The position numbers were made by a program, and so were the translations under genes. Positions 11,107-27,132 of a stretch of DNA of 64,000 nucleotides are shown one piece after another. Under the pieces are notes generated by a model. It was not told the origin of the DNA. It saw only the letters and a list, made by a program, of their open reading frames with translations, and made no database searches. Position 1 is the stretch's first letter. Every line of letters begins with the position of its first letter. Origin of the DNA: an uncultured cyanobacterium (lineage in GTDB: Bacteria; Cyanobacteriota; Cyanobacteriia; Phormidesmidales; Phormidesmidaceae); NCBI GenBank assembly GCA_963793265.1, contig CAWBZI010000004.1, positions 672,001-736,000 on the forward strand, given 5' to 3'.

Positions 11107-12069
11107 CTACGCTAGCTGCTCTTCAGAGCGCTTCTTGCGAGAATGAGCGAAGTAAAGGCCGAAGGCGGCTAACCCGAGCAATGAGGAAGGCTCAGGAATA
11201 TCCTTTGTCGTATCTACTTTTACTAAGCGAGCGAAAAGATTAGCCGAGTTGTTGCCATCTTCTTGAGAGACAAAGCTGTTGACAAGATTTTGACCCGCCA
11301 GATCATCTGCAAAACCCATCAGCTCTAAAGAATACGTCTCATCTTCATAGGTAAAGTTGTTGGCTTCATTAACCGCAAAGTCCCAAGTAATCAGGTCTGA
11401 GCACCCTTTGCCTGCATCGGTTTGATAGGCACAGGCTTGACCGTTATTGTTACGACCCTTATTGTTTGTGGTTTCATCAATTGAAAGTGCAAAGTCGAAT
11501 GTTTTAGAGCCTAGCTCACTGTCGCCAAAGTCAAGATTGATGCTAATCTCTGCACTTTTGCCGTCGAGGCCATCACCTTTAATAGTTTGGTTAAAGTGAA
11601 TGAGTTCTCCAATATTGAAGATGTCTCCTACTTCTAGCTCTAGGTTGTTGATGCCCTGAAAGCCTAAGCCGCTTTGATTTTCGTAGGTATAAACAGTTTC
11701 GTGAAACTCATTGAAGTAGCCATATTGCTGTTGTCCTTGGCTATCGGTATAGCGTCCATGGCGAGTGCTTCCCCAAATATAGTCACGCCAGCTAGAAACA
11801 CCTGTCTGAGTAACGACCTTTGTACCGTAGGCGGCGCTACCCCAGCGGACTTCACTTCGGTTGCTGCCATCGTCAATAAATTTAATCTTGTTGTTGGCAT
11901 CTGCTGCTACGCCATTAGAACCGACTGTGTAGCCTGCCGATAGAGAAACGTTATCCCAGACGGCACTTGTATTGTTAATGGTGAATGCGTTTGCAGATTC
12001 TGCTGATAGGCTGAGGGTTGTAGCGATCGCGCCAACTGCAATTAAGGTAGAGAATGTTTGAGTGTTCAT
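11107..12069 (-). CDS. PEP-CTERM protein with a choice-of-anchor K / THxN-like domain
   Basis: Signal peptide ending ANA; EVRWG, QSGLGF, LIHFNQTI, DETTN motifs; C-terminal IPEPSS + TM + RKKR. Confidence 0.8.
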   Translation of the reverse strand: MNTQTFSTLIAVGAIATTLSLSAESANAFTINNTSAVWDNVSLSAGYTVGSNGVAADANNKIKFIDDGSNRSEVRWGSAAYGTKVVTQTGVSSWRDYIWGSTRHGRYTDSQGQQQYGYFNEFHETVYTYENQSGLGFQGINNLELEVGDIFNIGELIHFNQTIKGDGLDGKSAEISINLDFGDSELGSKTFDFALSIDETTNNKGRNNNGQACAYQTDAGKGCSDLITWDFAVNEANNFTYEDETYSLELMGFADDLAGQNLVNSFVSQEDGNNSANLFARLVKVDTTKDIPEPSSLLGLAAFGLYFAHSRKKRSEEQLA

Positions 12070-12611
12070 AAGTTTGGTTAATTCTGTAGGTTGCTCGTGT
12101 ATCAAAACTAACCTCCAAATTTCAGTGCTATCACCCTGACATTACGGAAATGCACTTAAAGAAACAATCAAGAGAAAAGGTTATTTCAGCGGTTATAACT
12201 GATGTTTACTGGGTGTGACCTGTTAAATATACGTAGGAAAAAGCTAATATACCTGAGCCTTGGATTGCGCGCATGTAATCGCTAAAGCTCAGCTATGACA
12301 AAGCTTTCGAGATTTTTGCGCAATGCAAATCGATAAATGATTATGGATGATATAGCGGACTTCACATAACCAAATATTTGCGAAAACTACCGAGCTATTG
12401 TCTCTTGTTCTTGTCGTGATTATCTATTCTAAAAGTCTGAAGAGATTTTTTGAGAACGAACACTTTTTATGAAAGTTGTTAATCTCTTGTTCTAACTGCA
12501 AGAAATATTTGTTTTCTGTTAAGTCGCTGCAATCCCTCTTTTACTTATAAAAGCCTAAGTGTTTTAACTGGTATTAAGTAGCACACCTACAGTACTTCCG
12601 CTTTTAAAACC

Positions 12612-13511
12612 ATGAATACACCTAACTCAAATAGCAGTCAAAGCACTCAGCTAATCGCATTGTCCGCAGGCTTAGCGATCGCAACTATTGCCGCCATAGC
12701 ACCTTCTGCCGAAGCCGCTAGCTTTAACCTTAACTTTGACGAGGGCACGAACGGCAGCAGCGTCCTCTATAACGCTAACGGAACTCTCAACACGCAGCAG
12801 TGGGCTGACTGGGGCTTAAGAGACATCACAGGCATTAACCGAGGTACAGGCGGTGCGGCAAAGATGAACACTTATGACTCAAGCAATCAGCAGTGGGGCG
12901 AAGATCATGATTTGAGAACAGGGAGCACCTGGGGCACTGCTCTACAAGGTAACGTATTAATCATTCAAGAAGAAGATCAGCGCAACAATAACTACTTCAA
13001 TAACAACGGCGTTTATCGTGCTGACGATCAAGGGTACAGAGGCGGCACGATTAATTTTGACTTTGATAGCGCGATCGCTCTCACCAGCTTCTCAATGTTA
13101 GATATTGACGATAACGGCAGCGGCATCAGAGTGACCGGTAACGGTGCGAATGGCGCGCTTGACATCGATATCGACAGGCTAATTAACGACCATAAAGCGG
13201 CTCATGGCAACTCTCAGGGGAGCACATTCACCAGAGATGGTGTAACGATTACTCAGGTGGGTACAAAGCGCAACGATAACTCAATGTATCAGTTCGACCT
13301 GGATCAAACTCACTTTGCCGGTATGCGATTTGAGAACGTTGAGTTTAACTATCCTGGCAGTGGTGCTATCTCTGGAATTGAATGGCGCACTGATGAAGAT
13401 GGGCCAGTAGACATTCCTGAGCCTTCTGTGGTGGGCGGGCTGCTTATGATTGGCTTCATTGGCGTGCGTAAGCGTCTCAAGAGTAACAAGCTAGCTGTTG
13501 ACGCTGCATAG
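12612..13511 (+). CDS. PEP-CTERM sorting-domain protein
   Basis: Signal peptide ending AEA; N/G/D-rich body; C-terminal IPEPSVVGGLLMIGFIGVRKRLK. Confidence 0.88.
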   Translation: MNTPNSNSSQSTQLIALSAGLAIATIAAIAPSAEAASFNLNFDEGTNGSSVLYNANGTLNTQQWADWGLRDITGINRGTGGAAKMNTYDSSNQQWGEDHDLRTGSTWGTALQGNVLIIQEEDQRNNNYFNNNGVYRADDQGYRGGTINFDFDSAIALTSFSMLDIDDNGSGIRVTGNGANGALDIDIDRLINDHKAAHGNSQGSTFTRDGVTITQVGTKRNDNSMYQFDLDQTHFAGMRFENVEFNYPGSGAISGIEWRTDEDGPVDIPEPSVVGGLLMIGFIGVRKRLKSNKLAVDAA

Positions 13512-14561: not shown

Positions 14562-16499
14562 ATGGTTAACACGACGGGTTACGGTTCTTGGCGATCGCCT
14601 ATTACTTCAGATTTGATTGTCTCTAGCTCAATTCGGCTAGGGGCCGCACAGCTAGACGGCTTAGACATTTACTGGAGCGAACTGCGACCGACCGAAAACG
14701 GCAGACAGCTTGTTGTTCGCTACGGCCCAGAGGACGAAATTGGTACGGCTAGCGACATCACACCTGCCCCTTTTAGCGTGCGAACTCGGGTGCATGAATA
14801 TGGCGGCGGCGCGTATACGATCCACGGCGGAACGGTGTACTTTTCTAACTTTGTCGATCAGCTTTTGTATCGACAGGTAGCGGGTGAAGTGCCGGTAGCT
14901 CTAACGCCTGAGGTGGAACCGAAGGCGGGGCTACGGTATGCCGATATGGTAGTAGACGCGCGCAGGGAGCGGTTGATTTGTGTGGTGGAAGATCATCGGC
15001 AGTCGGGAGAGGCGGTGAATGCGATCGCGACAGTGCCCTTTGCAGGCGGCTTGCCTCGGGTGCTGGTGAGCGGGAACGACTTCTACTCCTCACCTCGGCT
15101 GAGCCCTGATGGCACTCAGCTCGCCTGGATTACATGGAATCATCCACAGATGCCGTGGGATGGCACGGAGCTATGGATGGCTTATGTAAGTGATGACGGT
15201 AGCCTCAGCCGTCCGCGCAAGCTCACAGGCAACGTCAAGGAATCGGTGTGTCAGCCGCAGTGGTCGCCGGGCGGATCGCTGTACTTTATTAGTGACGCGA
15301 CGGGCTGGTGGAATCTGTATCGGTGGGAAGGAGAACGCGCCGAGCCGCTGTTTCCGATGGAGGCAGAGTTCTCAGGGCCGCAGTGGAATTTTGGTCAGAG
15401 CAGCTATGGCTTTGAAGACAATACGACGATTATTTGTACCTATGCAGATAAAGGCATTCGGCGGCTAGCGCGGTTCGACACGCGGGCGCGATCAATGGAC
15501 GAGATTGAAACGCCTTATTGTGGCATCGGCAGCTTGCAGGTCGGAAAAGGATTTGCAGTGTTTTTGGCAGCGAGCACTAGCAAGCCGGGTGCACTGGTAC
15601 GGCTAGATTTAGATACCTTCGAGATGACGGAGCTGCGGCAGTCAAGCAGTGTGACCATCGATCCGGGGTACCTGTCGGAACCGGAGGTGATTTCTTTTCC
15701 CACGACAGGAGGGTTCAACGCATACGGCATCTACTATCGCCCTCAAAATAAGGACTATGAACCGCTAGTAACTGAGCGACCTCCTTTGTTAGTAAAAAGC
15801 CACGGCGGGCCAACAGCCGCCGCTTCACCCGCTTTCAACCCTTCGATTCAATATTGGACAAGTCGGGGGATTGCAGTGCTAGACGTGAACTATGGCGGCA
15901 GCACGGGCTATGGACGCGCCTATCGGAACCGGCTTCAGGGCGCGTGGGGCATTGTCGATATTGATGACTGTGTGAACGGAGCTTTGTATTTGGTTGAGCA
16001 GGGGAAGGCAGATGAGAACCGGCTGTCGATTGACGGTGGTAGTGCTGGTGGCTATACGACGCTGGCGGCGCTGACGTTTCGAGATGTGTTCAAGGCGGGG
16101 GCGAGCTATTATGGCGTGAGTGATATGGCGAGCCTAGCAGCAGAGACGCATAAGTTTGAGTCGCGGTATTTGGATAGTTTGGTGGGGCCGTATCCAGAGA
16201 AGAAGGCGGTGTATGACGAAAGGTCACCAATTAATGCGGTGGATCAGCTCTCTTGTCCGATTATCTTTTTGCAGGGGTCAGAAGATAAGATTGTGCCGCC
16301 GAATCAGGCTGAGACGATGGTGAATGCGCTGAAGGAAAAGGGCATTCCGGTGGCGTATTTGCTGTTTGAAGGCGAGCAGCATGGGTTTCGGAAGGCGGAA
16401 AATATCAAACGAGCTTTAGACGCTGAACTATCGTTTTATTCACAGATCTTTGGCTTTGAGCTAGCTGATGAGATTGAGCCGGTAGAGATTATCCAATAG
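14562..16499 (+). CDS. S9 family peptidase (acylaminoacyl/dipeptidyl peptidase)
   Basis: GYGSWRSPI start, HGGPT, nucleophile GGSAGG, QGSEDKIV, EQHGF. Confidence 0.92.
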   Translation: MVNTTGYGSWRSPITSDLIVSSSIRLGAAQLDGLDIYWSELRPTENGRQLVVRYGPEDEIGTASDITPAPFSVRTRVHEYGGGAYTIHGGTVYFSNFVDQLLYRQVAGEVPVALTPEVEPKAGLRYADMVVDARRERLICVVEDHRQSGEAVNAIATVPFAGGLPRVLVSGNDFYSSPRLSPDGTQLAWITWNHPQMPWDGTELWMAYVSDDGSLSRPRKLTGNVKESVCQPQWSPGGSLYFISDATGWWNLYRWEGERAEPLFPMEAEFSGPQWNFGQSSYGFEDNTTIICTYADKGIRRLARFDTRARSMDEIETPYCGIGSLQVGKGFAVFLAASTSKPGALVRLDLDTFEMTELRQSSSVTIDPGYLSEPEVISFPTTGGFNAYGIYYRPQNKDYEPLVTERPPLLVKSHGGPTAAASPAFNPSIQYWTSRGIAVLDVNYGGSTGYGRAYRNRLQGAWGIVDIDDCVNGALYLVEQGKADENRLSIDGGSAGGYTTLAALTFRDVFKAGASYYGVSDMASLAAETHKFESRYLDSLVGPYPEKKAVYDERSPINAVDQLSCPIIFLQGSEDKIVPPNQAETMVNALKEKGIPVAYLLFEGEQHGFRKAENIKRALDAELSFYSQIFGFELADEIEPVEIIQ

Positions 16500-16941
16500 C
16501 CTGCCAATCTGACGCAGCAGAAAAGCGGCGTAGGTGGGCCACGTTTGTTGTCGCAATGATGACCTCTGTTTGCTCATCACAGAGAAGAATAGCTTGTGCG
16601 GATAAAATCACATCTCCATCTAAAGCTTTCGGATCAGCGGTGGGCTGTCCTGACTGCCTTGCTTTGGCCCAAAGGCTCGCAGCTAAGAGCATCGCATCTG
16701 TCTGGATTGGAACATACTCAAGTGTCTGTTTCAATCCATCAAGGCGGCGTAAGCTTTGAGTCAGCTTGGCACGAAGCAATTCTCTACGTACTTCATAGTC
16801 TGCGATTTCAGGAATAGCAACCCGTTCACCTTTTTGCAAAAGAGAGGTAAGCCATATTTGACAAGCCAGCGGAACTCCTTTCGCCTTCGGGTTTGTGACC
16901 ATACCTAAAGGGCCAGAGTCTAGCAAGATCAATCTATTCAT
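16489..16941 (-). CDS. PIN-domain toxin
   Basis: LLDSGPLG, EIADYEVRRELL, LDGDVIL, ATTNVAHL. Confidence 0.85.
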   Translation of the reverse strand: MNRLILLDSGPLGMVTNPKAKGVPLACQIWLTSLLQKGERVAIPEIADYEVRRELLRAKLTQSLRRLDGLKQTLEYVPIQTDAMLLAASLWAKARQSGQPTADPKALDGDVILSAQAILLCDEQTEVIIATTNVAHLRRFSAASDWQAIG

Positions 16942-17240
16942 GGGAATAGGTGACGATCTGACAGGCGATCTTCATCTAATGCAGTTTTCAAAAAATCCCA
17001 AGCTTTCTGGTGCTCAGAAGCATCTTCGGTATCGTCTAACCAGGAATCTAAAAGAGCGATCGCCGCTTTATTTTTCTCGGCCTGCTCAGCATTTACAATA
17101 GGTGATACATCTACAGAAATTTTCTGCCGAAACTGGCGCAGGGTTGCTAGCAGCTCTGTCCAGTATTCTTTAGGCGTTGCTTCAATTTCCTGAAGCAGCA
17201 GTTCAAGGGACGCTGTAGATGAAGTTGAATCATTTGCCAT
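16938..17240 (-). CDS. Putative antitoxin
   Basis: Small acidic ORF whose stop overlaps the PIN start (ATGA); C-terminal LKTALDEDRLSDRHLFP. Confidence 0.7.
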   Translation of the reverse strand: MANDSTSSTASLELLLQEIEATPKEYWTELLATLRQFRQKISVDVSPIVNAEQAEKNKAAIALLDSWLDDTEDASEHQKAWDFLKTALDEDRLSDRHLFP

Positions 17241-17391
17241 AAACTAGATCGCAGTTACAGGGCCACTAGAATATGGTAGCGCGTAGGCCGTCATCGATAA
17301 CTTTTTGCCTAAATCATCGTGCGACTGAATTCAAAGAAAGCATCACTTATTTCTAGAGAAGGGAAAACATGCCGAGCAAGTATCAGATTCA

Positions 17392-17616
17392 ATGTGGGAA
17401 ATGAAGCCATGGTGGTGTCAGCCGTGGTCGATTATTTTGACGGGCGTAGTAGTGCCGGTTGCTTCATGGATGCTGTTACATCGGTGGTGGATTACAGTGC
17501 CGATAGTGGGAGTAATAGCCGTTTGGTGGGTGTTGTTTTTGGTACTGGTGCCTGCGCAATACACGGCGGCTGTACAGGAGAAAGCTCATATGAAAGGTCA
17601 TTTGAATAAAAATTAA
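17392..17616 (+). CDS. DUF6737-like small membrane protein
   Basis: KPWWCQPWSIILTG followed by two hydrophobic segments. Confidence 0.75.
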   Translation: MWEMKPWWCQPWSIILTGVVVPVASWMLLHRWWITVPIVGVIAVWWVLFLVLVPAQYTAAVQEKAHMKGHLNKN

Positions 17617-17676
17617 AATCATGATTCGTTTGAGAGGCGTAAGCCCCGTTAGTAGAATAAGTTTTTAACTTTTCGA

Positions 17677-18984
17677 GTAACTACTCAGGCTTAATACTTT
17701 ATGAAAGAAACCGTGGTGTCAGGCCAAACGACGATAGTGTTTGAACATCACTAGGCCCATCAAGGATTCACTGTTTTGAGTAAAGACGAGCCGAAAATCA
17801 CCATCAGCCGCGATGAGATCAAAGCGGTCTATGCAGCAGGCGAAGCGGCAGTGATAGAGCTAGTCGAAGGGTTAACGGCGCAACACTTAACGTTAGTCGA
17901 AAAGCTGTTGAAACAACAGATAGCCCTAGAGACGCGGATAAAAGCGCTCGAAGATAAGCAAACGAAGAACAGCCGCAACAGCAGTAAGCCGCCGTCAGGC
18001 GATGGCTTCGGGAAACGTACGAAAAGCTTGAGAAAAAAGAGTTCTCGCCCCAGCGGTGGCCAAAAAGGACATCCTGGCAGCACATTGGAATGGCGCGAGC
18101 AAGTGGATGAAGTGGTCAGCCACCGAGTAGAGTTTTGTCAGCAGTGCGGCGCATCCTTGCGAGCCACCGCTGTCACTGGCTATGACTTGCGGCAAGTCCA
18201 TGAGCTACCATCATTGTCGTTACGTGTGATAGAGCACCAAGCAGAAGTCAAGTGCTGCGGTACGTGTGACACACTCAATCGAGGTCGATTCCCGACTGAT
18301 GTGACCAGCAGAGTGCAGTACGGCAGTAGCGTGAAAGGTCTGATGGTGTATCTGATGGACGCCCAGTTATTGCCGTCAGAGAGAACCCGTGAAGTGCTTT
18401 CTGAGGTGTTTAGCTGCGAGGTCTCGGAAGGGACGTTGTACAACGCGAGAGCGAAGTGCTTTGAGAAGCTCGCTGCGGTAGAGCAACAGATCAAAACCCA
18501 GATTGAAGCATCGCAGGTGCTTCATTGCGACGAAACGGGCCTGCGCGTCAATCGCAAATTATGGTGGTTGCATGTAGCCTCAACGGCTGCGTTGACTTAC
18601 TACTTCGTGCATCCTCAGCGAGGTCGCGTGGCGATAGATGAGATGAGCGTGCTATCGAATTTTGACGGGGTGAGTGTCCACGACGGCTGGCAGAGCTACT
18701 TCGGCTACGACTGTGCTCACAGCTTGTGTAATGCGCATCATCTGCGCGAACTACGGTTCATCGTAGAACGCTACAAGCAACCGTGGGCACAGCAGATGAT
18801 GACGTTACTATGTGAGATTAAGGCACAAGTAGATGAGGCAAAAGTAGCCGGTAGAGAGGCGTTGAGTACTCGCCAACTGCACGAGTTTGAGGAACGCTAT
18901 CAGACCATACTCGTGAATGGCTTTAAGGCAAATCCACCGCCGCCGATTGATGAAAACGGGCCGAAAAAACGAGGCCGCGTCAAA
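17677..18984 (+). mobile_element. IS66-family (ISBst12-type) element, right end deleted
   Basis: Left end GTAACTACTCAG at 17677; single transposase ORF; direct repeat CTTTTCGA at 17669-17676 and 18985-18992; no right inverted repeat found. Confidence 0.85.
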
Positions 18985-19023
18985 CTTTTCGATACAATTA
19001 GGCTTACTACTGAAGTAGCGTAA
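17776..19023 (+). pseudogene. IS66 transposase, C-terminally truncated
   Basis: NSRNSSKPPSGD, GGQKGHPG, Zn-finger CxxC, CDETG, HDGW, LCNAHHLREL; similarity stops after KKRGRVK and the NNxAER motif carrying the third DDE residue is absent. Confidence 0.85.
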
Positions 19024-19033
19024 ATAGAAAGAA

Positions 19034-19507
19034 ATGCATTACTATGCCGCGCCACAATGTCCTAGCCATTTGCTACCTTCTAAAGGTAGAGACGAAAGGC
19101 GTGCAAGATATAAAGCTGCTCAAGAGCTATCTATACTAGCCGCCAATGATCTCCTAAAAGTCAAGATGCCCAATGGCTTTAGTACTAGACAGTTCGTCAA
19201 AATTACAGAAGAAGATTTGATGTCCAAACAAGAAGAAGAAATCTCAGATGCCGTAAAGGTGATCAGTAAGCTTTCTAAAGCAAAAGAAAAAGCTCAGATG
19301 CTGCACGAGCAATCTCTACGAGCGTATAAAGATATAGATTGCTTATTCGAGGAAGCATTCATACCAGAAGAGAAATACAAAGAGATAGAAATTAGTCTAA
19401 AAACTATTCATGATTATGCAAGGGCCGCCTTCGCATACAAAGAAGCTTTACCGGAATCTAAACGTGCCAAAGATTTCCTTGCAGAAGCTCTAAAACTTCC
19501 TAAGTAA
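19034..19507 (+). CDS. Hypothetical helical protein, first gene of an AT-rich cassette
   Basis: 157-aa ORF preceded by TACAAT (18993-18998) and a purine-rich stretch; ends 15 bp before the next gene. Confidence 0.7.
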   Translation: MHYYAAPQCPSHLLPSKGRDERRARYKAAQELSILAANDLLKVKMPNGFSTRQFVKITEEDLMSKQEEEISDAVKVISKLSKAKEKAQMLHEQSLRAYKDIDCLFEEAFIPEEKYKEIEISLKTIHDYARAAFAYKEALPESKRAKDFLAEALKLPK

Positions 19508-19522
19508 ACTACAACCAAGAAG

Positions 19523-21652
19523 ATGACAGACAAAATTACTTTCTCTGAGCTATATAAGATTCCAGCTTCTGATAATCATGATTGGTTTGATCCGCGATTG
19601 GATAGAGACACTCATCTGTGCATGGATCCTTTCTTAGTATTTAAGTCTAAGGATCCGCTCTTTGGTGGTTGTCGAGACAAGTTTATGAAGTTTTTTGAAT
19701 CTGCTTTTGAAATTGCTTCCAAAGTAGACAAGATTCCCACGCACGAAGAAAGAAAGAGAAGAAACATTTCTCCGACATATGATCATCTAATACGAAACGT
19801 CCTTTATTTCCCAGAAGTAGAAGAAATATGCTTGGGTTTTTCTGAAAGAAGCACTGGCGGATCAGGCGCAGGAAGAGGTTTTTCAGCTAAGGTGACAGAC
19901 GCGCTAATTGAGATGTCAAAGCAGGGGACTTCTCCTCCCAAACATTTTGAATCCATAGCGATATTTACGCCAGGTATAGGAGTAGATGGAATTAGCGATG
20001 CAACTGCAAATATCATAAAGAAAGAGCTTGTTGAATATACTATGGAGGTATGTAAAAAGTATGGTCTACAGACAAGGTGGCTTCCGATAAAGAATTTTGA
20101 GTTCGACTTTGATAATAGAAGGTGGGATGATCAATGCTTTGAGCTACCTTTTAACCCGTTTAATAACAAGCCTATAATATTAGTGCCAAAAAGGTTTCTT
20201 CGCCAAATTCCTTCGATCAGTCCTCAAGAGTTTTATGAGTACATCGAGAGCAAATCCAACGAAGCTATTAGAGCCAATTTAAACTTTGATATTCAAGCTA
20301 ATCTCGAAAACAATGACTCGGTAGCTAGAATTCAAGAGGAGAGGGAAAAGAGTACCTACAAGAAGCGTGAAATCATAGAGTATGCTAATAGCCATCCAGA
20401 TGTTCTCAACGAGTTCATAGAACATGTTGATGACAATGAAGAACTGTACAGCGCATACAACTTCAAAAAGGACGAACAGAACCTATGCGACCTGCCAAGA
20501 GAGGTATCGAGATTTGTATACAGAAATGCACTTGAGAACTTCTTGCTTAAGAACGAAAGCGATCTTTTTGATTTTATAGACAAGCTAATTCTTCAAGTGA
20601 AGGTGTTTGTAGAAGGCAACGGTGGATACAAGTTTCTCTGGGAAAAGAGAGAGTCGGCTGATTCAACTGATCAGAGATTTCAATTTAAAAAAGAAAAGGA
20701 TGCTCAGGAACTTTTTAGGTCAGTCATTGGAGACTACTGCTTTGCAGGAGAAATAAGTTTAAAAAAGGAGAGTAGCTTAGGCATAAATCCTGTGAAATTT
20801 ACATCTAAGGCAAAGTCTTATAATGAAAATGTGTTACTTATATCTAGGCTGTTTAGAAATGTAAAGCTAGATGAAGAGAGCCTGAAGGAGCTACGTTCTA
20901 CACTAAGACAAAAAAGGATAAAATACTGTCATTACACGATCTTTGTGCACAAAGAGGAAGATTTTGAGCGCATAGAAGAAATTATCGAGGAAGTTGAAAG
21001 TTTTGATTTTGGCGACAGCACTATATTTAAGATATCTATAGTTAACGTGATGCTTGATAGAGACATCCCCCTTCCTATATATAGTTCACAGGTTAAGGAG
21101 AAAGAGGTTTGTGTTAGCTACGCTCGTAGTGAAATTAGCATCCAAGTGGCCGACAAGATTTGCATGATACTCAAGGCTCAGGGAATTAGAGCTATCCGTG
21201 ACTCAGATGAACTAAGGTATAAAGATTCTCTCTCAAAATTTATGAAGAGAATTGGCGAAGGGAAATGTGTCATAACACTGATAAGCGATAAATATTTGAA
21301 GTCTCAATACTGTATGGCTGAATTAGTCGACCTCGTAAATACAGGAGACATGAAGGACAGGATTGTTCCAGTTGTTTTGGACGATGCAGCTATATATGAA
21401 GCTACCAATATCATTAAATACATAAAATACTGGGAGGAGAAATCTAGGGAGTTAAAGGAAGATCTTAAGACTATTGATTTCAGCAGCTCAAGAGGAATAA
21501 GGGAGGATGCTGACTTGTATGCAGATCTCGCGAGAAACATAGGCCAGCATATAAATGTTTTGAGAGACTTCTTCGTAAGATCGTTGCCCGTGCAAATTGA
21601 TTCTAATTTTGAGGATGTGGTGAATGAGGTTAATAGAGTATTTTCTAAATGA
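19523..21652 (+). CDS. TIR-domain protein with a large uncharacterised N-terminal region (putative defence protein)
   Basis: C-terminal TIR_2 motifs VCVSYA, IRDSDELRYKDSLSKFM, ISDKYLKSQYCMAEL, IVPVVL. Confidence 0.85.
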   Translation: MTDKITFSELYKIPASDNHDWFDPRLDRDTHLCMDPFLVFKSKDPLFGGCRDKFMKFFESAFEIASKVDKIPTHEERKRRNISPTYDHLIRNVLYFPEVEEICLGFSERSTGGSGAGRGFSAKVTDALIEMSKQGTSPPKHFESIAIFTPGIGVDGISDATANIIKKELVEYTMEVCKKYGLQTRWLPIKNFEFDFDNRRWDDQCFELPFNPFNNKPIILVPKRFLRQIPSISPQEFYEYIESKSNEAIRANLNFDIQANLENNDSVARIQEEREKSTYKKREIIEYANSHPDVLNEFIEHVDDNEELYSAYNFKKDEQNLCDLPREVSRFVYRNALENFLLKNESDLFDFIDKLILQVKVFVEGNGGYKFLWEKRESADSTDQRFQFKKEKDAQELFRSVIGDYCFAGEISLKKESSLGINPVKFTSKAKSYNENVLLISRLFRNVKLDEESLKELRSTLRQKRIKYCHYTIFVHKEEDFERIEEIIEEVESFDFGDSTIFKISIVNVMLDRDIPLPIYSSQVKEKEVCVSYARSEISIQVADKICMILKAQGIRAIRDSDELRYKDSLSKFMKRIGEGKCVITLISDKYLKSQYCMAELVDLVNTGDMKDRIVPVVLDDAAIYEATNIIKYIKYWEEKSRELKEDLKTIDFSSSRGIREDADLYADLARNIGQHINVLRDFFVRSLPVQIDSNFEDVVNEVNRVFSK

Positions 21653-21842
21653 GGATGTCTTGATGTTAGCTTCCTTCACGGTATGCATCGGCACAAACGT
21701 AGAGAAGCGAGGATTAGCATATGTACTATTACTCACGCTATCTATATCTGTGTTACCTGTCGGAAGATAGTTCCGTAGGAATATTATATTGCTGTAAATT
21801 GGCTATCTGACAGTAGCTGTTTAAAGATTTAGGTTGATAGAT

Positions 21843-22208
21843 ATGGCTGAGACTAAAAATGTGCTTGGAACAGATTTACAGACCTGTTGCACTTCGCCAA
21901 TGACCGGATTCTATCGAGACGGCACGTGCCAAACGGGGCCACAGGATCAGGGTGTTCATGTGGTGTGTGCAGAGCTAACAGAGGCTTTTTTGAGCTATAC
22001 GAAGGCGCAGGGCAATGATTTGAGTACGCCTCGGCCTGAGTACAATTTTCCAGGGCTGAAGCCGGGCGATAAGTGGTGCCTGTGCGCGACTCGGTGGAAA
22101 GAGGCGATGGATGATGGGGTTGCGCCTGCTGTGGTTTTGGAATCGACGCATGAGGCGGCGCTGAAGCATGTGAGTTTGGATGATTTAAAGCAGCATTCGG
22201 TTGAGTGA
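21843..22208 (+). CDS. DUF2237 family protein
   Basis: KNVLG, PMTGFYRDGTC, GNDLSTP, GLKPGDKWCLCA. Confidence 0.9.
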   Translation: MAETKNVLGTDLQTCCTSPMTGFYRDGTCQTGPQDQGVHVVCAELTEAFLSYTKAQGNDLSTPRPEYNFPGLKPGDKWCLCATRWKEAMDDGVAPAVVLESTHEAALKHVSLDDLKQHSVE

Positions 22209-22244
22209 TAGGTAGGGAGCTATCTTTTGCTACTCGTAATATGA

Positions 22245-22697
22245 TTATGCTGACAAGACAATTTCCTTCGGCTGCACTGTTGTAATGCTAGAAAAACTTG
22301 TGAAGTCTCTAGGATTCAAAGTCAGAATGTGACTGATCCCAGTAGCCTGCATAAGTGCGATGAGACGCGCATCGTGAGTGTGCTTACCTAGCACCTTATT
22401 CTCAGTCACGAGTGCTAACCAAGTAGATAGAATCTGTGGTGGCTCCTCTAGAACTGGAGAGCGATTGAGAAGCTGGTCGATCTCGCTGCACGTTCTACCT
22501 GCTGACCAAGCCATACCGTTAACATCAGCCGGACGAGTAGCGACTGCCCACATTTCAATAAGAACCTGAGCTGCTAAATAGCACTCATCCGACTGCTTTA
22601 GAAGCGTAGTGATCGCGCCAACAACTAGCTCATGCTGAGCGTCGGATGGATTGCTCAAGCGAAGAATAATATTAGTATCTAGTAAATATTTTGGCAT
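22245..22697 (-). CDS. vapC: VapC-type PIN toxin
   Basis: YLLDTNIILR, QVLIEMWAVATRP, HDARLIA, LTLNPRDF. Confidence 0.85.
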   Translation of the reverse strand: MPKYLLDTNIILRLSNPSDAQHELVVGAITTLLKQSDECYLAAQVLIEMWAVATRPADVNGMAWSAGRTCSEIDQLLNRSPVLEEPPQILSTWLALVTENKVLGKHTHDARLIALMQATGISHILTLNPRDFTSFSSITTVQPKEIVLSA

Positions 22698-22948
22698 CAG
22701 TCGTAGATAGTGCCTCGATCGAAAGCTTCATCGGGAAGGCTTATTCCTATTCTCGACTGTTGAGCAGACCACTTTAAGATTTCTTCAGCACGTTCCTGTG
22801 GCGTCGCTTTTTGCCAAAAAGGTTTATCTTCGCCATTGAGTTTGGTCTGTTGAGACGGTGCTTTCATCTGTGCAATTAGCGCCGCGAGCCTCTCTAATTG
22901 AGGTTCACTCAAATGCTCAATTTCTGATTTAAGCGTTTCTCTCAGCAT
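22697..22948 (-). CDS. Putative antitoxin
   Basis: 83-aa ORF overlapping the PIN start by 1 nt; C-terminal LPDEAFDRGTIYD. Confidence 0.75.
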   Translation of the reverse strand: MLRETLKSEIEHLSEPQLERLAALIAQMKAPSQQTKLNGEDKPFWQKATPQERAEEILKWSAQQSRIGISLPDEAFDRGTIYD

Positions 22949-23083
22949 TATTAATTACGTCTCATCCGCTGCTGTCACTATTGTAAGCGTAGGGACGATG
23001 TTGCAACCGGCCCTGTAGATAATGGGCGGTGAGATTTTGAACCGTGGTGGCTGAAAGCCGTTTGTGGGTGGGCGATCGCGCCA

Positions 23084-26543: not shown

Positions 26544-26748
26544 CTATGCGCCTTCTACGCGCCGGGTCAAAATAGCCATCACTTCACCGGGCCGACCGCT
26601 GCTGATAGGCCGACTCCAATCGGTAGGTTCGGCGTAGCCTAGCTGGTGTAGGCGTAATATGGTGGCTCGCACAATGGGCGGGGTGCCGAAGATCATATGG
26701 CTGACCTGTGGGCGATCGCGTCCACCCCCACCGCAGCTCGGGTCATTC
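26544..26748 (-). pseudogene. 3' remnant of a small cyanobacterial hypothetical gene
   Basis: Frame absent from the ORF track reads HMIFGTPPIVRATILRLHQLGYAEPTDWSRPISSGRPGEVMAILTRRV*, a motif I recognise from small Leptolyngbya-type proteins. Confidence 0.55.
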
Positions 26749-26902
26749 GGTAGACCAGGCCGCTTTTAGTCTCGTAGTAAGTGAAAATAGAGAAAGTGAG
26801 ATATGAATAATGCTGAAGATAGCTGTCTATCTTACTAACAACGTTTTCTTCCCCTCTGAGGAAACAAGAAAGCATATTGGTATCGAGCAGTGCCTGTTTC
26901 AT
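26693..26902 (-). pseudogene. Truncated VapC/PIN toxin
   Basis: ALLDTNMLS...TYYETKSGL is a PIN N-terminus; unrelated sequence follows and the ORF stops at 69 aa. Confidence 0.75.
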
Positions 26903-27132
26903 ACGTCTCGACTTCGCTGTAAGTCCATCTGGCGGTTTAGTTCGGCATCTTCAATAATTCCATCTGATAGATTAGGAGAGTCAGCTAGCATTCCGGCAAA
27001 CGCCATCACGCCTGTATGAGACTGTTTGACCAACCGCTGAGCCTTGAGAAAACGCAGATAGTTTAGAACGTCGGGGATAAGAGACGTTGGTGTATCGTTA
27101 ATCTCTTGCAAAAGTTGCTGTTTTGGTGTCAT
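26899..27132 (-). CDS. DUF2281-like antitoxin
   Basis: KQQLLQEINDTP...VLNYLRFLK; ATGA overlap with the PIN fragment. Confidence 0.7.
   Translation of the reverse strand: MTPKQQLLQEINDTPTSLIPDVLNYLRFLKAQRLVKQSHTGVMAFAGMLADSPNLSDGIIEDAELNRQMDLQRSRDV

Follow-up and report, generated by a model that had tools for sequence, protein, structure and literature searches.

What does a pair of AT-rich genes do between two ordinary chromosomal genes of a cyanobacterium? The 64,000-nucleotide stretch analysed here, which we call the window (uncultured Phormidesmidaceae, contig CAWBZI010000004.1, positions 672,001 to 736,000; all coordinates below are those of the window), carries such a cassette at 19034-21652. 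An earlier note, made from the sequence alone, had proposed it as an anti-phage module consisting of two co-oriented genes 15 bp apart, and both plus-strand open reading frames (ORFs), ORF157 and ORF709, are indeed present with that spacing. We consider it likely that the cassette functions in defence. For the whole chain proposed below, a two-protein abortive-infection complex in which a domain of the Toll/interleukin-1 receptor (TIR) type destroys NAD+ through the glutamate E600, we estimate a probability of about one in two; defence, NADase activity and trigger are what we infer for this cassette. The features on which the argument draws are as follows.

19034..19507, plus strand: ORF157, 157 amino acids (aa), cassette-subfamily paralogue of a hypothetical protein widespread in cyanobacteria, and predicted partner of ORF709
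19097..19189, plus strand: predicted interface of ORF157, residues 22-37 and 45-52
19523..21652, plus strand: ORF709, 709 aa, starting 15 bp past ORF157
19523..20542, plus strand: DUF8370 (PF28123), ORF709 residues ~1-340 with an inferred boundary, including a partial PDC-M36A match at residues 9-249
20075..20143, plus strand: DUF8370 beta-hairpin, ORF709 residues 185-207, predicted docking site of ORF157
20549..21049, plus strand: DUF8371, ORF709 residues 343-509, restriction-endonuclease fold resembling BstYI, OkrAI, BamHI and BglII, catalytic triad lost
21095..21652, plus strand: TIR domain matching Pfam TIR_2, with a helical extension, ORF709 residues 525-709

ORF709 couples a dead restriction-fold nuclease to a TIR domain

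Precomputed annotations of ORF709 homologues comprise PF28123 and PF28130, named DUF8370 and DUF8371 in the Atlas. The AlphaFold model of residues 1-514 (predicted local distance difference test score, pLDDT, 86.7) aligned best over residues 343-513, where the top four rows were all type II restriction endonucleases: BstYI (Z 7.1), OkrAI (6.8), BamHI (6.8) and BglII (6.7), with 128-139 residues aligned at a root-mean-square deviation (rmsd) of 3.8-4.5 Å. We accept this fold in spite of the middling Z scores because the sequence motif of the relatives agrees with it, the pattern E-x3-Q...D...E-x-K...Q-x3-Y being invariant in 32 relatives that have no TIR domain. At the triad positions ORF709 itself has K425 for D, I440 for E and R442 for K, so that the PD-(D/E)xK fold is there and the catalytic D...E-x-K triad is not. 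For DUF8370 (residues 1-340) no clear structural match was obtained in a fold search whose rows mostly span 319-512 and barely cover this part; Foldseek found nothing at E<=0.001 with either of the two models, and sequence searches of the PDB with alignments A3 and A7 (the latter being the ORF157 family) gave only weak matches (best E 0.17 and 0.013). DUF8370 is likely a sensor or scaffold. What the earlier note had called an unknown domain consists of DUF8370 and the catalytically dead DUF8371 nuclease.

The C-terminal part matches TIR_2 at residues 529-640 (E 1.6e-13) and retains E600 (codon GAA, 21320-21322, within YCMAEL), in agreement with the earlier note. We take E600 to be the catalytic-position glutamate, going by the TIR motif; it is invariant in all 12 aligned fusions and kept in 25/25 of a larger set. 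The closest TIR folds are those of plants, with RPS4/RRS1 (4c6t) at Z 12.3 and an rmsd of 3.3 Å over 156 aligned residues. ORF709 has both the fold and the catalytic glutamate of a TIR NADase, and its TIR domain may hydrolyse NAD+. The host genome contains five other ORFs above the TIR_2 cut-off, and no second TIR of ORF709's subtype was found in it. The same subtype also occurs in single-protein fusions of SIR2_2 and TIR_2 in Bacteroidota records (L027, L031), and N-termini similar to those of these fusions are found in L022, L025, L029, L030 and L032.

Loss of the nuclease triad goes with new C-terminal domains

We surveyed the triad in 213 non-identical aligned proteins (candidates of at least 440 aa plus one 436-aa locus ORF). 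The D, E and K residues were all intact in 158 of 173 proteins without an extension, in 2 of 15 with an extension other than TIR, and in none of the 25 TIR fusions, which are not independent of each other because many are close, near-identical Nostocales kin. In trees built on the DUF8370/8371 part only, a cyanobacterial clade with 100/100 support holds intact nucleases (L018, L039, L140, P0018-P0020) as well as dead ones that carry EAD1, EAD1-CHAT or unannotated tails. Nested within it, the dead-nuclease TIR fusions including ORF709 form a clade of their own (100/100), while P0154 (810 aa, TIR_2 at 627-738) is the sister of the L140 protein, an intact one. A single clade of the 14 sampled TIR fusions was rejected by the approximately unbiased (AU) test, run on 37 of the 213 rows with a group defined after the first tree had been seen (p-AU 1.4e-80), so that a TIR domain was gained, with loss of the nuclease, at least twice. 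The L018 and L140 proteins have an intact triad together with an ORF157-type partner, which argues that ORF157 was recruited before the nuclease was lost.

Outside these fusions the family is large. In a 50%-identity library, the stand-alone relatives of ~475 aa that have no TIR domain number 4,424 clusters at a cut-off of E<=0.001 and 3,064 at the stricter E<=1e-10; the closer ones show 30-37% identity over most of residues 1-510. Broken copies of the cassette occur in relatives (L021, L063, L136, P0015). We set aside the frameshifted P0004 (410 aa) and the shortened P0061 as probable errors of another assembly, given that short reads do not support them. In Calothrix brevissima (L021, 7200-11195) two tandem, internally deleted cassette copies each follow an AAA_35-like gene. 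Such a gene also adjoins the cassette in L013, L014, L015 and L037, in three genomes near hydrogenase-like genes, and its site is possibly an insertion hotspot. In Calothrix PCC 7103 (L019, 7977-12673) a dead-nuclease-EAD1-CHAT fusion faces a gene for an EAD1-periplasmic-binding protein, beside a type ISP restriction-modification (R-M) enzyme.

ORF157 is a diverged paralogue of a widespread gene and is inherited with ORF709

No family of Pfam or PADLOC contains ORF157. In an alignment with five full-length homologues all begin at the same Met, and the ratio of nonsynonymous to synonymous substitution rates (dN/dS) is 0.13-0.33 in 7 pairs; on both grounds we regard ORF157 as a real gene and reject the idea that it is an artefact of the nearby insertion sequence (IS) junction. 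The small gene lies upstream of the DUF8370 gene, at a spacing of -23 to +54 bp, in 17 of the 18 distinct clade loci whose upstream DNA is long enough (window, L013-15, L017-19, L021, L036-38, L057, L061, L063, L136, L139, L140), and it is absent at 59 other listed metagenome loci, some of which have short flanks. Five of the six top-scoring ORF157 matches in other genomes of the class lie directly before a DUF8370 gene, the sixth (G183) being at a contig end. Distances among ORF157 and ORF709 proteins correlate (Mantel rho 0.87, n=14). The two genes are tightly linked and co-diverging.

The ORF157 profile also detects a further copy elsewhere in the host genome (L105, G000:C1:784668-785132, E 1.4e-31). 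The family occurs in 220 of the 401 class genomes surveyed, for the most part in single copy, and in 18/18 congeners. Cassette copies (n=19) are split from core copies (n=37) by a 100/100 branch, with a mean identity of 0.48 within the former, 0.69 within the latter and 0.35 between them. By sequence, then, ORF157 is a diverged paralogue from a widespread, mostly single-copy chromosomal gene family. The small helical protein of the earlier note thus holds up as a real, co-inherited gene, whose origin from a host gene had been missed; homologues in conserved core contexts, which that note had named as speaking against its idea, do exist for the ORF157 family as a whole and not for the cassette subfamily. 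The core copy is a conserved, unannotated protein of ~160 aa without a Pfam family, and whole bacterial families lack it (0/46 in f2). Synteny of the core gene gave no functional hint, with no neighbour family common to more than 5 of 27 loci.

ORF157 is predicted to dock on a hairpin of DUF8370

We modelled ORF157 with residues 1-514 of ORF709 in ESMFold2 and obtained a score of 0.73, the best of three controls reaching 0.00. Of 157 solved pairs, 116 attained the score mark used, as did 2 of 215 mismatched ones; these counts apply only roughly to the alignments used here. Contacts were at least 97% alike between runs, with a partner pLDDT of at least 72. In the model the ORF709 hairpin 185-207 lies against ORF157 residues 22-37 and 45-52, so ORF157 is predicted to dock on this part of DUF8370. 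Two positions within the predicted interface distinguish cassette from core copies: position 26 is Y or F in 19/19 cassette copies vs E, D or N in core copies, and position 51 is T in 18/19 vs mostly P. These differences would fit a specialisation for binding.

The origin of ORF157 also allows a different account of how the cassette is triggered, which we regard as possible, if doubtful. ORF157 could be a decoy, that is, a diverged copy of a conserved protein targeted by phages, held on a nuclease-derived scaffold, so that an attack on it fires the TIR domain. No phage homologue of ORF157 was found at E<=1 in 50,697 phage records, a search that lay outside IMG/VR, and a single PHROG match was weak (E 0.0065).

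Relatives often lie in defence and mobile-element contexts

DUF8370/8371 homologues (E<=1e-8) occur in 21 of the 401 class genomes. The neighbourhood survey that the earlier note had proposed did place relatives in defence islands: of the 25 loci scanned outside the clade, which belong to intact-type relatives, 15 had clear defence-type neighbours, a count that has no matched control and comes from 105 of 160 ORFs within 4.5 kb, chosen by us and compared with PADLOC at 1e-8. These loci are L041, L044, L046, L047, L052, L053, L058, L062, L068, L072, L074, L080, L085, L088 and L098, three of which rest on methyltransferase or GmrSD-like matches; the other ten had no such neighbours or weak ones. 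The neighbours include Tiamat, Lamassu, AbiE, Shedu, Thoeris ThsB, GajA/Old and type IIG R-M genes. Relatives are further present on thirteen IMG/VR contigs, several of them beside integrases. Within the clade, L019 adjoins a type ISP/IIG R-M gene and AbiTii, and L020 borders a pPIWI-RE island.

At L139 (1530-4999, genome G281) a nucleoside-2-deoxyribosyltransferase-like gene and a gene for a 771-aa TIR-SLOG (cluster 2) protein lie upstream of the cassette, with TniQ/TniB genes downstream. The arrangement resembles Tn7-like cargo that includes a module of the Thoeris kind.

The cassette differs from described TIR systems

In SPARTA, CBASS TIR-SAVED and TIR-STING, Pycsar PycTIR and Cat1, a TIR domain with a catalytic glutamate is fused to a regulatory module. 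The cassette has the same arrangement, and activation by clustering, as in these systems, may apply to it too. It differs in having no prokaryotic Argonaute (pAgo)/APAZ, cyclase, SAVED, STING or CARF; the module fused to its TIR domain is a restriction-fold nuclease without the catalytic triad, and its partner is a host-gene paralogue. Short pAgo/APAZ of SPARTA had no PADLOC or Pfam match in ORF157 or ORF709, no cyclase of CBASS or Pycsar was found among the flanking ORFs, and a SAVED_TIR match was confined to the TIR domain (residues 528-652). Thoeris likewise has a TIR domain with the catalytic glutamate; in the cassette, by contrast, the TIR domain is C-terminal on a 500-residue DUF8370/8371 module and ThsA is missing. 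No ThsA (SIR2-SLOG or TM-Macro) adjoins the cassette, whose neighbours are IS66, DUF6737, DUF2237 and PIN, and a weak 53-residue ThsA match falls inside ORF709 (E 0.0035). The earlier note was therefore right that no partner gene of Thoeris, CBASS, Pycsar or SPARTA stands beside these genes.

An effector could nevertheless be encoded elsewhere in the genome and respond to a diffusible signal made by the TIR domain, a cyclic ADP-ribose (cADPR) isomer or other nucleotide, in the manner of Thoeris. The resemblance to plant signalling TIRs (RPS4/RRS1), the occurrence of ORF709's TIR subtype in fusions with SIR2-like domains (L027, L031) and the position of the L139 cassette downstream of TIR-SLOG and nucleoside-deoxyribosyltransferase-like genes would all suit such signalling, which we consider improbable: the TIR loci share no co-inherited effector gene, and the host genome has no SIR2_2 match in a search that detected its positive control. 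Searches of the host genome for STALD and SAVED also gave no match; the STALD control was silent as well, and the SAVED search was uninformative.

In plant TIR-NLR guard/decoy pairs, a TIR output is tied to a host-protein copy that has diverged. The cassette resembles them in its TIR domain with helical extension (the 4c6t fold match) and in the link between a TIR domain and a host-protein copy; it differs in having no NB-ARC or LRR, and a decoy role is hypothetical here.

The nearest relative among defence candidates is PDC-M36, a PADLOC candidate defined by Payne et al. (bioRxiv 10.1101/2024.01.29.577857), and a purely computational one. Both belong to the same DUF8370 superfamily (ORF709 residues 9-249 match PDC-M36A, E 4.6e-27), and in both a large gene is paired with a gene for a small helical partner. 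However, the match covers only positions 10-233 of the 457-position profile, whereas the true member L155 covers 1-456 (E 6e-225), and the cassette has a dead nuclease plus a TIR domain. The earlier note's expectation that PADLOC would give no full match to a named system thus held, this half-length match having escaped it. ORF157 is not PDC-M36B: it had no PADLOC match at E<=1, and hhalign against the three-row M36B alignment gave a probability of 0.25% (E 0.24). Pairs of a DUF8370 gene with an M36B-like partner occur in cyanobacteria (L174, L175, L177, L180), and in the M36B-like protein the superfamily has taken up another small partner, an unrelated one. Stand-alone DUF8370-DUF8371 proteins share the two domains and occur in defence-island and prophage contexts, but keep the triad, have no TIR domain and are accompanied by an ORF157 partner only inside the cyanobacterial clade.

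In E. coli, according to Wang et al. 2024 (PMC11350192), active-site residues were required in all 12 TIR systems found defensive and both genes in all five two-gene systems. The two-gene systems TIR-I, TIR-III, TIR-IV, TIR-VII and TIR-VIII resemble the cassette in gene number and in the TIR active site needed there; their extra domains are given as transmembrane (TM), AAA, TPR, DUF4238 or none, and none is described as a nuclease fold, a distinction drawn from descriptions and not from sequences (PMC11350192). A broader literature search of titles and abstract starts, outside subscription papers, found no system of this kind, and the cassette is apparently an undescribed variant of TIR-based defence.

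The cassette is a foreign-looking insertion later separated from its likely promoter

The GC content of 19034-21652 is 0.384, vs 0.506 ± 0.024 in 2,619-bp windows of the 5.68-Mb genome, and none of the sampled windows (step 1,300) is as GC-poor. The HIP1 motif GCGATCGC is absent from 17063 to 23072, a gap of ~6 kb that takes in IS and toxin-antitoxin (TA) genes besides the cassette and is equalled in length by 9 of 6,881 gaps genome-wide. Pfam identifies the flanking genes as DUF6737, DUF2237, IS66 and PIN, the upstream PIN match being weak (E 0.047), with IS66 between DUF6737 and the cassette. The AT-richness, the missing HIP1 site and these flanks had all been described in the earlier note and are borne out here. 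A repeat scan found no terminal repeats bounding the cassette. When the DNA of the region was searched against 40 relatives, no listed match covered the cassette, and in many congeners (confirmed in L145 and L146) the DUF6737 and DUF2237 matches are only a few hundred bases apart, so that the cassette is an insertion particular to this lineage, the site being empty otherwise. The cassette is thus a mobile, patchy, foreign-looking insertion.

Two further features lie upstream of ORF157.

17630..17658, plus strand: candidate sigma70-like promoter, TTGAGA-17-TAGAAT, 10/12, putative function
17677..18984, plus strand: IS66 element, delimited by Pfam/NCBIfam IS66, congener IS copies, contig X4-27 and loose ends at 18985

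IS66 sits about 50 bp upstream of ORF157 and is bracketed by an 8-bp duplication (17669-17676 / 18985-18992). Two sigma70-like sites were found, against 0.5 ± 0.7 expected, and none in the 50 bp left between IS66 and ORF157. In one contig of a second study (depth 2.5) 17666 is joined to 18983, an IS-free state in which a 5' region of ~60 bp lies between the promoter candidate and ORF157. From this allele and the position of the candidate we conclude that IS66 arrived later and landed between the cassette and its likely promoter; it separates the two in the present allele, and expression may be altered. The same duplication and the IS-free allele led us to reject the cassette as IS66 cargo. Short-read contigs carry ~297 extra bases at 18985, comprising the missing transposase end and the right end, so that the window copy of IS66, ~297 bp shorter than theirs, is an assembly collapse or a derived allele. 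The IS66 junction in the window has 10 bp in common with the IS-free allele, and 17677-18992 is possibly an assembly chimera of two alleles.

Could the cassette then be silenced, or a relic, in this strain, with IS66 cutting off its promoter while the family may still function in defence? Besides the interposed IS66 and the 50 bp devoid of promoter-like sites, the broken copies in L021, L063, L136 and P0015 speak for this. We think it an unlikely state of affairs, since both ORFs are intact in the window and in the short-read contigs, the IS-free allele exists, and read-through from the co-oriented transposase is possible.

In the short-read contigs neither cassette ORF carries an indel. The sole one listed, at 17370, lies a short way upstream of the DUF6737 ORF as called; because three short-read runs have an extra G there, we take it for an indel error of the window. 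The DUF6737 ORF is 74 aa here, vs 90 aa in the congener L145. Three PIN-type TA-like pairs lie near the locus (16489-17240, 22245-22948 and 26693-27132, the last outside the family scan). At 11107-13511 two divergent genes each end in an IPEP motif followed by a hydrophobic tail, resembling a signal of the PEP-CTERM sorting type.

A proposed mechanism and the evidence against it

We propose that the ancestor was a single-gene DUF8370-DUF8371 defence nuclease and that a cyanobacterial lineage took up ORF157 while the nuclease was still intact. Later lineages would have lost the nuclease chemistry and added new outputs: TIR at least twice, and EAD1, EAD1-CHAT or uncharacterised tails. In the present cassette, DUF8370 together with ORF157 would act as the infection sensor, and the dead nuclease would likely be retained as an assembly scaffold that clusters the TIR domains. 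ORF157 would most likely act as a brake on the complex, released when a phage factor binds, displaces or modifies ORF157; the clustered TIR domains would then hydrolyse NAD+ through E600, and the infected cell would be arrested.

Several points weigh against this proposal. ORF157 may inhibit or activate the complex, a brake being the likelier role. The fold match has middling Z values near 7, and L020, the sole exception to the linkage, has a dead nuclease without the small partner. The cassette loci of cyanobacteria are mostly surrounded by ordinary genes or by TA loci (L013, L017, L018, L057), which weakens the case for defence; among the scanned cyanobacterial neighbours, which cover part of the loci, defence genes were seen at L019, L020 and L139. 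The literature searched (PDC-M36, DUF8370, WP_048335006; subscription papers outside) contained no tested member of the DUF8370 family, and only 12 of 32 tested E. coli TIR systems were defensive (PMC11350192).

The C-terminus may, moreover, be an adaptor, because sister fusions carry the non-enzymatic EAD1. On this account it would be non-catalytic and recruit another conflict protein of the host, with the dead nuclease and ORF157 acting only as sensor. Of the 15 relatives whose extension is not a TIR domain, 13 have lost the triad, several of these extensions are EAD1 or EAD1-CHAT, an EAD1 gene adjoins the cassette in L019, and five other host ORFs exceed the TIR_2 cut-off; we nevertheless hold an adaptor to be scarcely likely, as the catalytic glutamate is retained in 25/25 TIR fusions and no second TIR of the subtype was found in the host. 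Finally, we give little credence to a TA-like selfish or stress module without a phage-specific role (ORF157 as antitoxin, TIR as toxin), for although a small gene precedes and is tightly coupled to a putative toxin gene whose product it is predicted to bind (0.73 vs 0.00), PIN TA loci flank the cassette on both sides, and ORF157 residues 14-71 weakly match an Xre antitoxin profile (E 0.015, a lead only), intact-type relatives outside the clade do without the partner and adjoin defence genes, and a large multi-domain protein is atypical as a type II toxin.

Implications for cyanobacterial defence

The cassette provides a defined, testable candidate for cyanobacterial defence, and the large, unstudied DUF8370/DUF8371 family can be assigned the fold of a nuclease and, as a likely role, defence. 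Its relatives make up a natural before/after series on one sensor scaffold, from the intact nuclease to a dead one with TIR (at least twice) or with EAD1/CHAT, and its accessory subunit is drawn from the conserved gene pool of the host and specialised at the predicted interface. If ORF157 is a decoy, a guard/decoy logic like that of plant TIR-NLRs would have arisen through repeated effector swaps on a dead restriction-fold nuclease; the core gene would then be a cyanophage target, which would offer a way to find out what a widespread cyanobacterial gene does.

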